From a virus (Duplodnaviria; Caudoviricetes), in IMG/VR virus record IMGVR_UViG_3300037067_002302, positions 4,913 through 68,912 of that record: a stretch of 64,000 nt of DNA, one strand, 5' to 3'. The notes under the pieces are model-generated. The model was not told where the DNA came from and ran no database searches. It saw only the letters and a list, made by a program, of their open reading frames with translations. This document shows positions 1 to 64,000 of the stretch, one piece after another. The position numbers and the translations under genes were made by a program. Numbering within the stretch: position 1 is the stretch's first letter; the number at the start of each line of letters is the position of its first letter.

Positions 1-2
1 CA

Positions 3-86
3 TTTGTGGCACTTCACAAGAAATATAACCGCAAAGAGTATTTTAGCGTTCGGCCTATTGAGATTGAGGAAAGGAAAAAGAAATAA
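3..86 (+). CDS. 3' end of an upstream gene (partial, ...FVALHKKYNRKEYFSVRPIEIEERKKK*)
   Basis: Open frame from base 3 to TAA at 84-86, overlapping the ATG of the next gene (TAATG coupling). Confidence 0.5.
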   Translation, partial: FVALHKKYNRKEYFSVRPIEIEERKKK

Positions 87-682
87 TGAGAACAAAGAAA
101 ACGGAAGAAATGACGATAATTCTACCGCAGTTGTCCATTGAGACAATGGAACTAACGCTTACAGGAGACTCACCGCTTATCTGTCATAAATGGAGCGAAA
201 AGGCAAAGAAGGAAATGCTCGCCAAGCAAATGAAACAGCCACAGCAGGCAAAGGAAGCGAAAGACCCTCGACAGGACTATGAAGACTCGCTTTATAAACT
301 CCCTGATGGTGGTTACGGTTTCCCTGCTGTCGCGTTTAAGGCCGCTGCTGTTGATGCTTGCAGTCACATTGACGGCGTGACAAAGGTCACAGCTCGTGGA
401 GCATTTCACATTATCGGCGATATGGTCAAGATAGACGGCGAACCTTCAATGCGCGAAGATATGGTGCGAATAGGCATGGGTACGGCTGACATCCGGTATC
501 GTGGAGAGTTCCGTGAGTGGAGTGCTACATTCATAATTCGTTACAATAAAAACGTTATCTCGCCTGAGCAGATTGTGAACCTGTTCAACACGGCGGGATT
601 TGCTGTTGGAATTGGAGAATGGCGACCGCAGAAGGATGGGTCATTTGGTATGAACTCTGTTGCCAAGTGGAAGAAACTCTGA
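86..682 (+). CDS. Cas7/RAMP-like phage protein (putative Vipr-type RNA-binding effector)
   Basis: 198 aa. N-terminal LTLTGDSPLICHKW strand, GFPAVAFKAA helix motif (compare Cas7/Csm3 IPGSSxKG) and C-terminal glycine-rich loop GFAVGIGEWRPQKDGSFG. Directly followed by a GGY-NN array. Confidence 0.7.
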   Translation: MRTKKTEEMTIILPQLSIETMELTLTGDSPLICHKWSEKAKKEMLAKQMKQPQQAKEAKDPRQDYEDSLYKLPDGGYGFPAVAFKAAAVDACSHIDGVTKVTARGAFHIIGDMVKIDGEPSMREDMVRIGMGTADIRYRGEFREWSATFIIRYNKNVISPEQIVNLFNTAGFAVGIGEWRPQKDGSFGMNSVAKWKKL

Positions 683-694
683 CGAAGTGTGTAT

Positions 695-958
695 GGCAGG
701 CATGGCGCGTTATGTCCTGGTTCGGAGGGGTACGGTAAGGCAGGCGAGGCGAGGGTAGTACGGTGGGTCTAGTCCAGGTAAGTTATGGCAGGCATGGCGA
801 GTTGGGTTGTGGTGTGCTTGGATGGTTCTGGCAAGGCAGGCGGGGCGGGTTCCGGCATGGTCAGGGTGGCCGTAAGAGGCATGGTTTGGCAGGCTAGGCG
901 GGTCGGTATGGGGCGGGTCTTGGTCAGGTGGGGACGGTTCTGGTAGGACATGGCAGGC
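695..958 (+). repeat. GGY-NN pentamer array with six GGCAGGC delimiters (putative guide-RNA array)
   Basis: GGCAGGC at 695, 739, 787, 835, 888 and 952 (spacings 44, 48, 48, 53, 64). Between them is a 5-nt periodicity, e.g. GGC-AT GGC-GC GTT-AT GTC-CT GGT-TC GGA-GG GGT-AC GGT-AA. No credible + strand ORF. Confidence 0.85.
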
Positions 959-1075
959 GAGTCACAAGCGTAGGGTGCATAGTTAGTGCCTTTGCCCTCC
1001 AAAAATTCAGGTTGGCGAATTGCAACCGGTTTAACTAGCAAGATAGCAGATGGGACAGAAGGGAGTAGTTGGAGA

Positions 1076-1426
1076 ATGACGATTACAATATCAGAAGTGA
1101 AGCGTAAATGTATGATTCTGCCCGCTGACACGATTTATGATACATCAATCGGTAATCTTATAGCCGAGATGTTGCCAGCGTTGGAATATACACTTGCCGA
1201 TGCTTATCTATCGGATACAGGGAATCTGAATCTACAGGCGGCTCTCAATCTAGGTATGCTTGAGATTATATCGGGCGAATTCCTTCATCAATTGAGCAGG
1301 GAAATGCGTTGTGATAAAGAATTTTCAGTGGGCGGACTTGCCCTAGAAGAGATAGGTGAGCGTGGGCGGGAATTGATAAAGCAGGGAGCATCCAGGCTGG
1401 CTCCATTCCTAAGGACGGTTCGATAG
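1076..1426 (+). CDS. Head-tail connector/adaptor-like protein (gp6/gp15-like), orphan copy
   Basis: 116 aa from ATG 1076 (track ORF 986-1426). MTITISEVKRKCMILPADTIYDTSIGNLIAEM resembles the N-terminus of helical head-tail adaptors. Resemblance from memory only. Confidence 0.4.
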   Translation: MTITISEVKRKCMILPADTIYDTSIGNLIAEMLPALEYTLADAYLSDTGNLNLQAALNLGMLEIISGEFLHQLSREMRCDKEFSVGGLALEEIGERGRELIKQGASRLAPFLRTVR

Positions 1427-1428
1427 AC

Positions 1429-1503
1429 TTTGCCGCCCAATAAATAAACCCGCTGACGGCTCAGGGTGGCAAAACGGGAGGCTGGTTGGGCGACTGGCCT
1501 CCC
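1429..1503 (+). terminator. Two hairpins after the RAMP/array/connector unit
   Basis: TTTGCCGCCC/GGGTGGCAAA (1429-1473) and GGGAGGC/GCCTCCC (1476-1503). Confidence 0.4.
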
Positions 1504-1517
1504 AACTTAACAAAAAA

Positions 1518-1547
1518 TTGACAATCATACATTCCACCTGGTATAAT
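1518..1547 (+). promoter_or_regulatory. Sigma70-type promoter
   Basis: TTGACA-N18-TATAAT with extended -10 TG. Confidence 0.8.
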
Positions 1548-1554
1548 GGAACTA

Positions 1555-1707
1555 GCGAAAACAAGAACAGTTAAATGAGCGGCGCTTTTTTATTAGGTAG
1601 TCTTATAACGGCTGTCCATACCACTAAAACGGTCATGGACATAAATGGCGGGCTTGTACGGCTGTTCTTGTTTTCGCAAATAAGGCGCGGCTCAGTGCAG
1701 GCCCGCC
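1555..1707 (+). ncRNA. C4-like antisense RNA cassette 1 plus downstream target sites
   Basis: Perfect 16-bp closing stem 1555-1570/1662-1677. Internal TGAGCGGCGC and GGCGGGCTTGTAC are complementary to downstream GCGCGGCTCA (1685-1694) and GTGCAGGCCCGCC (1695-1707). Confidence 0.7.
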
Positions 1708-1726
1708 GTTTTATGTACAGAGGTAG

Positions 1727-2470
1727 ATGTTATGCCATATAAGGACAAGGAAAAAACGCCGCGAACATGATAAACAGTGGAGAGACAACAATCGTGAAAA
1801 GATAAGGAAATATCAAAAGAAATATAGAGATAATAATCCCGATAAAATAAAAGAGAGGTTGAGGGTTTACCGAGATACTCACTTACAAGAAATGCGGGAA
1901 TATTCAAAACGTTGTCGGGAAGCACATCTAGATTGCATCAAAGAACGCCAGAGGTGTTATCGCGAGGCAAATCGTGAACGCATAAATGAATCGCGAAAAC
2001 GTTGGCGCAAGTTACATTCCGAACAATATAATAAAAAACATTGCGAAGAATCGAAATGTTACCGGAAGGCACACCCAGAACAAAATAAGCTCTGGCGCAA
2101 GGCACATCCAGAGCGAATTAAAGAATATACGAGGCGTTATCATGAGTCGCATCCTAATAATTATCGCAATTGGCAAAAGGCAAACGCTGATATATGCCGA
2201 GCAAACAATCATCGCAGGCGGGCCAGGTTCACAGAAGTAGAAAATACTCTTACTGTCAAAGAATGGCAAATCATAAAAGATACTTATAAGCACAAGTGTG
2301 TCTACTGCGGCAAGAAGCTGAAGAACCTGACGATGGATCATGTCATACCAATCTCGAAAGGTGGAGGGCATACCAAGGAGAATGTAGTGCCCGCTTGTAA
2401 GTCATGTAATTCTCGTAAGCGAGATCGTGAAGCACCCGCATTTCAGAGAGCGTTATTATACGCTGAATAA
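1727..2470 (+). CDS. HNH endonuclease with long charged helical-repeat N-terminus
   Basis: C-terminal CVYCG...TMDHVIPISKGGGHTKENVVPACKSCNSRK. N-terminal W/YRxxNxE repeats. Confidence 0.85.
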   Translation: MLCHIRTRKKRREHDKQWRDNNREKIRKYQKKYRDNNPDKIKERLRVYRDTHLQEMREYSKRCREAHLDCIKERQRCYREANRERINESRKRWRKLHSEQYNKKHCEESKCYRKAHPEQNKLWRKAHPERIKEYTRRYHESHPNNYRNWQKANADICRANNHRRRARFTEVENTLTVKEWQIIKDTYKHKCVYCGKKLKNLTMDHVIPISKGGGHTKENVVPACKSCNSRKRDREAPAFQRALLYAE

Positions 2471-2481
2471 GGAGTGGAAAT

Positions 2482-2724
2482 ATGAGATGTAAAACTTGTG
2501 AAAACACCATCCAGAATGTACCGGCGCACCTGCGGGATGCTGCGACCTGGATATGCCATCGGTGCTCGTGCAGCGACCATACGACTGTAGTTGCCGCAAT
2601 GGTCAGGGCGGATGAGATAGAGGCCGACAAGCATCGCCACAATGGCAAAAAGCGCGGCAAGCCGATAACTATTGCGCCGAGAGGTGCAGGGATACCGACG
2701 TGTAGGCCGAGAGGAAAGGTATGA
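2482..2724 (+). CDS. Hypothetical Zn-binding protein
   Basis: CxxC...CxxC; RBS GGAG; operon packing. Confidence 0.55.
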   Translation: MRCKTCENTIQNVPAHLRDAATWICHRCSCSDHTTVVAAMVRADEIEADKHRHNGKKRGKPITIAPRGAGIPTCRPRGKV

Positions 2725-63476: not shown

Positions 63477-64000
63477 ATGTGTCAACCAGCATCGGGAGTA
63501 TTGACGAAAGACCATGCCTTTTGGTCTAAAAAAACCGAGTCGCACTCGGAGATCATACAGGAATTCAACCTACATGCGGACGGCGTTGGTGGGCCGAATG
63601 TCCTGCAATTCGAGATAACACCGCCTAATGGCGACTTTACGAAACCGTTAGAGGAGTGGAGATACAGGGTCGATCAGGATGTAACGCCGGAGTGGTACGA
63701 TCCCGCGAAGGATGAAACAAGAGCGCGGAGTATATTACAGGACTGGATAGCCGCGAAGGTCGTGTTGCCTGGTCAAATACGAGTTGTCAATCGAGGCGAA
63801 ATGGTAATTGCTTGTTACGGCACGGTGCAGTATGTCAACCAGGGCGGCACGGTGCAGGATGTCAACCAGGGCGGCACGGTGCAGGATGTCAACCAGGGCG
63901 GCATGGTGCAGTATGTCAACCAGGGCGGCACGGTGCAGTATGTCAACCAGGGCGGCACGGTGCAGTATGTCAACGGCACGGTGCAGTATGTCAACGGCAC
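63477..64000 (+). CDS. Beta-solenoid repeat protein (partial; runs off the window; not in track)
   Basis: MCQPASGVLT...SHSEII... then GTVQ(Y/D)VNQG repeats; RBS AGGAGAGGAG. Confidence 0.75.
   Translation, partial: MCQPASGVLTKDHAFWSKKTESHSEIIQEFNLHADGVGGPNVLQFEITPPNGDFTKPLEEWRYRVDQDVTPEWYDPAKDETRARSILQDWIAAKVVLPGQIRVVNRGEMVIACYGTVQYVNQGGTVQDVNQGGTVQDVNQGGMVQYVNQGGTVQYVNQGGTVQYVNGTVQYVNG
63819..64000 (+). repeat. In-frame tandem repeat: 5 x 27 bp, then 2 x 21 bp, then a partial unit
   Basis: GGCACGGTGCAG(T/G)ATGTCAACCAGGGC units at 63819, 63846, 63873, 63900 and 63927; 21-bp units at 63954 and 63975. Confidence 0.9.

Follow-up and report, generated by a model that had tools for sequence, protein, structure and literature searches.

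Systems of the Viral Interference Programmable Repeat (VIPR) kind were described in 2026 in three bioRxiv preprints, including 10.64898/2026.04.26.720920 and.720927, as a form of RNA-guided DNA silencing that uses a gapped code and is a possible ancestor of the CRISPR RAMPs. Their protein Vipr, which occurs mostly in phages and prophages, is a minimal RAMP, and their guide RNAs (vrRNAs) consist of 9-16 YNNGG repeats, along which it polymerises with one protomer for each repeat. The two N bases of every repeat pair with DNA, one target base is skipped per repeat, and the outcome is the transcriptional silencing of competing mobile elements (bioRxiv 10.64898/2026.04.26.720920,.720927). Seven types with variable array layouts are distinguished, types III-V carry nucleases, and the VIPR-associated vap proteins include some with HNH domains (VIPR preprints). 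Here we analyze a 64,000-nucleotide stretch of a Caudoviricetes genome (positions 4,913 to 68,912 of IMG/VR virus record IMGVR_UViG_3300037067_002302), which as a whole is called the window below. An initial annotation, made from its letters alone, had noticed near its start a small Cas7-like gene followed by an array of pentamers, and had likened the pair to the VIPR architecture. That comparison proved accurate, both in that such systems have been published and in that a profile of the window protein's family matches the Vipr protein of Escherichia phage SUSP1. We conclude that the locus is very probably a phage-borne VIPR system, whose parts are a Vipr protein (86-682) and, encoded on its strand, an array of vrRNAs without tails (695-965).

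The open reading frame (ORF) encodes 198 residues and contains both the FPAVAFK motif and the glycine-rich C-terminal loop GIGEWRPQKDGSFG, the two elements that had suggested a RAMP to begin with. A Pfam search with this protein returned no matches. The PHROGs database assigns it to phrog_4652 (E 4e-32), a family of unknown function. This protein family is very large, with 7,595 clusters at 90% identity and, at E <= 0.001, 4,026 representatives at 50% identity. An AlphaFold2 (AF2) model built from a 67-sequence alignment reached a pLDDT of 96.3 and shows an RRM-like core (beta-alpha-beta-beta-alpha-beta) with a helical insertion at about residues 38-68, a thumb beta-hairpin at about 120-142 and a C-terminal G-loop at 175-188. 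The fold comparison proposed with the initial annotation supported it: every top Foldseek match in the PDB is a Cas7-family RAMP (Csm3/Cas7, from type III and type VII systems), with E values down to 3.5e-7, TM scores of 0.5-0.6 and sequence identities of 8-14%.

The relationship to Vipr itself can be detected in sequence. A profile built from a diverse family alignment (A1) matches PDB chain 36pp_D, 'SUSP1 Vipr protein', with an E value of 3e-14 (profile positions 22-196, chain residues 3-189), and hhalign pairs the family with the Vipr of the SUSP1-like Escherichia coli Felixounavirus ESCO50 at 98.1% probability (E 1.3e-13). According to the structural VIPR preprint, SUSP1 residues H17, R138, D177, W178 and R179 hold the GGY bases of the guide. 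These align with H34, R139, E178, W179 and R180 of the window protein, the one change being aspartate to glutamate. R139 and R180 do not vary in A1 or in an alignment of close relatives (A2), and within A2 the same holds for H34, E178 and W179. The product of the window gene is thus a Vipr, a minimal Cas7-like RAMP and a sequence-detectable homologue of the solved SUSP1 protein.

The array begins 12 bp after the vipr stop codon, as had been noticed at the outset, and its division into five units by six GGCAGGC motifs, which start at 695, 739, 787, 835, 888 and 952, was found as described (Table 1). Under dinucleotide shuffling of positions 690-960 the motif occurs 0.20 times on average and three times at most, and none of 5000 shuffles reached six. 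A dynamic-programming chain detector that looks for G-K-Y triplets at 5-nt spacing found a single segment on the two strands of the 64-kb window (128 kb in all). This segment spans 699-965, comprises 55 units and scores 29, where shuffled sequence averages 3.0 and reaches 8.8 at most. The constant triplet is best written G-[G/T]-[C/T], which fits 44 of 54 triplets (81%; GGC 21, GGT 11, GTT 7, GTC 5); the second position is frequently U in the RNA. The corresponding logo has G at position 1 in 44 of 46 cases, G (31) or T (12) at position 2 and C (22) or T (19) at position 3. The two N positions hold about 0.1 bit, and the alternation of a near-constant triplet with a variable dinucleotide in the initial annotation therefore stands. 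A period of 5 nt is incompatible with coding for a repeated peptide.

Each delimiter can be read as GGC-A-GGC, where a step of 4 nt moves the pentamers into another register; this accounts for the unit lengths of 44, 48, 48, 53 and 64 nt. Units 2, 3 and 4 contain one further internal 4-nt slip apiece. Because the delimiter steps move the register between units, the period-5 Fourier power of the array as a whole is low and flat and thus uninformative. Strict YNNGG runs extend over three units at most (851-865 and 919-933), short of the four or more that the VIPR preprints use in searching. The authors treat that rule as a low-threshold heuristic and handle degenerate arrays otherwise, so we regard it as a detection criterion rather than as part of the definition. 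Neither the array nor the trailer behind it folds more stably than shuffled sequence (z -0.07 and +0.21), and Rfam returned no matches, and no hammerhead, over window positions 1-2000; from this we conclude that there is neither a type II-style tail nor a ribozyme. A promoter scan of the spacer between gene and array gave nothing convincing, and the array is therefore probably co-transcribed with vipr. When the units were compared with those of other arrays, they matched at the level of the repeat scaffold only (62-73%), and so the guides are the window's own, as the initial annotation had anticipated.

If gene and array form one system, they should travel together, and this is what we found among 148 loci encoding homologues, collected from viral contigs, from species-representative genomes and from the bin that contains the window with the closer alignment A2 rather than the diverse A1. 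A same-strand array stands beside vipr in 137 of them: after one intervening gene in 91, directly downstream, as in the window, in 35, directly upstream in 9, and further off on either side in 2. One more locus (L070), where the array lies directly at the end of vipr and received the script label 'overlap', was left out of the 137. Ten loci appear array-less, and six of these ten offered less than 1 kb downstream of vipr to examine. On the opposite strand only two small matches turned up. As a positive control, the detector recovered the published layout of phage ESCO50, with short arrays upstream and downstream of the vipr-vap pair, and it also placed arrays next to the homologues of Gordonia phage Ecliptus, Mycobacterium phage Brocalys and Pseudomonas phage LESphi2. 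GGC-A-GGY is a recurrent unit boundary across the arrays of the family. Unit lengths peak at 44, 49, 54, 59 and 64 nt, and 70% equal 4 mod 5; another 19% equal 3 mod 5, which corresponds to one internal slip, as in units 2-4 of the window. Phages with identical Vipr proteins have gained, lost and reshuffled whole units.

The guides of these relatives also speak to how the code is read. We compared 474 uninterrupted guides with all fetched DNA, arrays masked, allowing 0-3 skipped bases per repeat. Matches of at least 90% numbered nine with a skip of 1, as against two, three and none with skips of 0, 2 and 3. Against 131 distinct vipr genes, guides at or above 0.9 were obtained only with a skip of 1 and only on the sense strand. 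Three guides reached this level and six reached 0.85, whereas all other skips and five sets of guides with shuffled order gave none at 0.9 and zero or one at 0.85. Two other vipr genes are matched in their MLDKQMKK region by a 12-NN guide, at 23 of 24 NN bases. A 10-NN guide reaches 18-19 of 20 in DMVKVGMGTA, a motif present in many vipr genes, and another 10-NN guide reaches 18 of 20 in MGTADLRYRG; the guides come from loci L046, L116 and L130, and the targets lie in L012/L087, in many loci and in L094. In each of these matches the NN pairs occupy codon positions 1-2, and the base skipped is the wobble base. Three such guides also match the vipr of the window, at 80-85% (458-504). The matching guides are apparent anti-VIPR guides directed at conserved motifs of other vipr genes, and the pattern of matches supports the view that the published 1-nt-skip rule extends to this clade, providing independent computational backing for the rule in a clade that has not been tried at the bench.

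Several observations weigh against reading the window locus as a VIPR system and need to be set beside this evidence. The GGY triplet of the initial annotation, taken strictly, is present in just 32 of 54 repeats (59%), and three of the five units contain register slips that may affect filament assembly. The family logo drawn from detector output is partly circular at positions 1-3. For this reason we re-anchored it on the delimiters themselves, 554 copies of GGCAGGY from 123 distinct arrays, which is free of that circularity. The flanks then repeat cleanly every 5 nt, with G (0.8-0.9), G/T and C/T ahead of two positions that hold 0.0-0.1 bits; the test suggested earlier, of whether the triplet is conserved while NN varies, thus came out in favor of a guide array. 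The window also lacks a homologue of the clade's accessory gene, which is phrog_15946-like, encodes about 150-180 residues with an HxxFEWxD motif and occurs in 133 of the 148 loci in three gene orders. As the VIPR paper describes vap as only 'typically' present, we do not consider this gene strictly defining.

Finally, searches of their own metagenome-assembled genome (MAG), 33 family genomes, 400 class genomes, IMG/VR and the JGI metagenomes revealed no natural target of the five window guides. Searches of the window's own 4.85-Mb bin with skips 0-3 gave nothing above chance (the perfect skip-3 matches are the array itself), as did those of all fetched loci, and the guides of a second array on contig C100 matched nothing in the same bin. 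Unit 5 has no exact match in IMG/VR and the JGI metagenomes and none with up to 3 mismatches in the 33 family genomes; in the 400 class genomes it has one (21/24), with no sense-strand frame open, where about 0.4 are expected. The single exact IMG/VR match of unit 4 lies in a 472-aa ORF of unassigned function on a low-GC contig with the skip on codon position 1 and is judged a chance match (about 0.05 expected), and the 14 exact IMG/VR matches of unit 1 are at chance level for 16 specified bases and fall in unrelated proteins in mixed phases. Two Brocalys guides searched in the same way had no exact match in IMG/VR. With few matches, in chance number, in unrelated proteins and off the wobble phase, the function of the window's guides is one that we infer.

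Some of these same observations would follow if the locus were a decaying or partly disabled VIPR that silences nothing, or in which only units 1 and 5 work. The missing vap-like gene, the slips in units 2-4, the 19% of triplets that depart from G-K-Y and the lack of a recognizable target all point that way. The ORF is nevertheless intact and all contact residues are kept, fourteen other loci likewise do without the accessory gene, one-slip units are common in the family, and internal degeneracy is frequent in published vrRNAs. In SUSP1, moreover, vap1 enhances defence, whereas silencing was abolished when vipr or the vrRNA was lost (VIPR preprints), and a Logan assembly of a public sequencing run yielded a locus identical to that of the window. 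On balance we consider decay unlikely. Still less probable is a target-destroying VIPR in which the HNH endonuclease encoded at 1727-2470 serves as accessory nuclease, as in types III-V. The initial annotation had argued for silencing on the grounds that no nuclease gene is adjacent; this does not hold strictly, given an HNH domain two genes downstream on the same strand and HNH proteins among the published vap proteins. Between this gene and the array, however, lie an unrelated ORF and the gene's own promoter, which matches the consensus at 12 of 12 positions with a TG extension, and in none of the 148 loci does a homologue of this HNH protein lie within 2.5 kb of vipr. Phage genomes often contain free-standing HNH genes.

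It could also be asked whether the repeats act in cis as DNA, either as iterons or an origin for the replication module or as a G-rich tract that forms structures, since they lie about 3 kb upstream of genes for a replication initiator and DnaB and their strand is 46% G. We find this hardly credible. Arrays travel with vipr, on the same strand, through neighbourhoods as different as the tail module of Ecliptus and the immunity region of Brocalys, and the genes that surround the array in the window are not conserved there. The NN-variable 5-nt scaffold, furthermore, matches experimentally sequenced vrRNAs, and relatives' guides match coding sequences under the RNA-guide rule. The phage-borne VIPR of a Vipr protein and a same-strand array is thus the reading that we retain: natural targets of its own guides apart, each defining feature of a VIPR that was examined in silico was found, and those missing, namely a run of four YNNGG units, the accessory gene and a type II tail, are not essential.

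By homology with the SUSP1 system, we infer that the window locus would be transcribed, processed at GGCAGGC, bound by Vipr as a ribonucleoprotein and used for silencing. According to this model, the array would be transcribed together with vipr, and Vipr protomers would polymerise along each unit, one per 5-nt repeat. The initial annotation had one protomer gripping each constant triplet. One protomer per repeat agrees with the published structure, in which each GGY is held jointly by two neighbouring protomers rather than by one alone. H34, R139, E178, W179 and R180 would sequester the G-K-Y triplet and leave the two N bases displayed, so that the filament could pair with double-stranded DNA reading xNN xNN ..., with one target base skipped per repeat, and block transcription of the bound gene. 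The target would most probably reside in a competing phage, a satellite or a rival VIPR. With its break of register, the 4-nt GGC-A-GGC step marks where one guide of 8-12 repeats ends and the next begins.

One extension of this model, a doubtful one, is that the clade has an array design of its own. The GGC-A-GGY break may stop one Vipr filament and seed the next, with protein phasing rather than a tail, ribozyme or handle setting the boundaries, and triplet position 2 (G or U here, almost purely GUC in the bin's other VIPR system) may be a tunable specificity letter. If so, this letter could allow two VIPR systems to coexist without sharing guides, and the accessory-less window locus would show that Vipr and array form a self-sufficient core. 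As a single instance the locus would not surprise a specialist. What it adds is an uncultured temperate phage with five guides absent from 122 other arrays, in a compact arrangement without tail or accessory gene. The family is large, numbering about 4,000 clusters when grouped at 50% identity, and its members in phages of Gordonia and Mycobacterium that are in culture could serve for testing this clade.

Table 1. Coordinates of the window's VIPR locus and its neighbours, and of a second VIPR locus from the same bin
Sequence	Feature	Position	Strand	Remarks
Window	vipr gene	86..682	+	198-aa stand-alone RAMP (Cas7-like) protein; basis: ORF, PHROGs, AF2, Foldseek, profile vs PDB 36pp
Window	Spacer, vipr stop codon to first delimiter	683..694	+	12 nt; from sequence
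Window	vrRNA unit 1	695..738	+	44 nt, a family mode; GGC-A delimiter step, then 8 in-register pentamers; NN: AT GC AT CT TC GG AC AA
Window	vrRNA unit 2	739..786	+	48 nt; 9 repeats; internal 4-nt slip at 758
Window	vrRNA unit 3	787..834	+	48 nt; 9 repeats; internal 4-nt slip at 816
Window	vrRNA unit 4	835..887	+	53 nt; 10 repeats; internal 4-nt slip at 864
Window	vrRNA unit 5	888..951	+	64 nt; 12 in-register pentamers; NN: TA GG GG GG GG TT CA GG CG CT AG AT
Window	Terminal delimiter GGCAGGC and two degenerate pentamers, array end	952..965	+	Basis: parse, detector
Window	Non-coding trailer after array	966..1075	+	Lacks a structured 3' tail such as that of type II (SUSP1)
Window	ORF directly after array	1076-1426		116 aa
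Window	Promoter TTGACA-18-TATAAT with TG extension	1518-1547		12/12 sigma-70-type consensus; precedes HNH gene
Window	HNH endonuclease gene	1727-2470	as vipr	247 aa; PF01844, E 2.5e-14
Window	27-nt tandem repeat	63818-64000		6.8 copies, 92% matches; runs into window/contig end
L004	Array	1215-1450		
L004	vipr	1477-2103		
L004	Accessory gene	2106-2657		

The window belongs to a temperate phage, with genes for a portal, a major head protein, a tailspike, a serine integrase, a replication initiator and DnaB, and the neighbours of the VIPR locus that we checked are phage replication and HNH genes. Tandem Repeats Finder detected no CRISPR-like repeat-spacer array in the window, where no dedicated scan for cas genes was run; a tandem repeat of another kind reaches the far end of the window (Table 1). 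The ORF that directly follows the array was considered as the missing accessory gene and rejected, with an hhalign probability of 0.35% and homologues in capsid-gene clusters without vipr. These few homologues are 141-144 aa long, share the MxITI start motif and have a C-terminus about 26 residues longer; in MAGs, of which at least one carries the annotation Armatimonadota, they follow Mu-gpT-like capsid genes, and they never adjoin vipr. The HNH protein, basic and repetitive over its N-terminal two-thirds, was likewise rejected as accessory gene product, not being conserved with vipr. For the accessory protein of the clade (examples in alignment A3: L001:3600-4112, L116:921-1370 and L004:2106-2654), no Pfam family was found; its AF2 model reached a pLDDT of 90, and a fold search returned nothing below E 0.6, with only faint winged-helix-type rows.

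The bin that contains the window (G000) holds a second system, L004 (contig C100: 1169-4717), whose Vipr is 47% identical to that of the window. In its upstream array 41 of 47 triplets are GTC, with U nearly always at position 2, the delimiter is AAGGCAGTC, and the composition is unique among the 123 arrays; repeats of this type may function with no Vipr other than their own. The bin itself comprises 4.85 Mb in 295 contigs with 6.4% contamination, compared with 0.9-2.0 Mb for the listed genomes of the same genus and 0.7-2.6 Mb for those of the same family. It may be mixed, and assigning a host to the phage from the bin is therefore unsafe. In Brocalys (L153, NC_031262.1), the annotated coding sequence of gp45 starts at locus position 1345, within a pentamer array at 1124-1356, and is homologous to Vipr from 1501 onward; the start codon as deposited probably lies too far upstream. 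In neither Brocalys nor Ecliptus is the array annotated. In LESphi2 (L154), a prophage of the Liverpool epidemic strain, three GGC-NN blocks separated by tail-like non-repeat stretches lie upstream of P21_9, a type II-like layout that adjoins the CI repressor region.

How the window locus relates to known systems can be stated for each in turn. Among published VIPR arrays, the closest kind is probably that called 'staggered', in which, as the legend of fig. S18 puts it, vrRNAs overlap by 1 nt ('1 nt overlapping positions'; bioRxiv 10.64898/2026.04.26.720920). As far as that legend goes, the two share a stand-alone Vipr RAMP, a same-strand GGY/NN pentamer array, a phage as carrier and guides that abut without a structured spacer. 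Since GGC-A-GGC is a 4-nt step, neighbouring guides would have one base of register in common or overlapping, as the legend describes, and it is from this wording that we take the correspondence of delimiter and type. Measured against the same legend, the window differs in lacking its clade's accessory gene and in the frequent U at triplet position 2.

The type II systems of Escherichia phage SUSP1 and a P. fulva prophage (PDB 36pp) have a homologous protein in which the GGY-contact residues are kept, and the 8-12 pentamer repeats per guide in the window lie within or near the published range; the 1-nt-skip, wobble-aligned matches known from these systems were seen in the window's clade. The arrays are built differently. 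The vrRNAs of SUSP1 are about 100 nt long, end in an invariant 3' tail with a pseudoknot and lie upstream and downstream of vipr-vap1, whereas the window has tail-less, GGCAGGC-delimited units of 44-64 nt and no vap.

A further related group is formed by the phrog_4652 proteins of cultured actinophages, namely Ecliptus gp19, Brocalys gp45 and their relatives, which are 41-44% identical to the window Vipr over 92-94% of the protein and have a GGC-NN array with GGCAGG delimiters directly beside the gene. They differ in host phylum, neighbourhood and array side, and are annotated as hypothetical proteins only. Within the set collected, Ecliptus and Brocalys are the nearest cultured systems for this clade. 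With class 1 CRISPR-Cas systems the window locus shares only the fold. The RAMPs of types III and VII (Csm3, Cmr4 and the domains of Cas7-11) have the same RRM core, thumb hairpin and G-loop and follow the same principle, protomers polymerising on a guide RNA at a fixed step. Beyond the low sequence identity given above, they differ from VIPR in that this step is 6 nt with five bases read rather than 5 nt with two, and in that the published VIPR systems silence double-stranded DNA instead of cleaving RNA.

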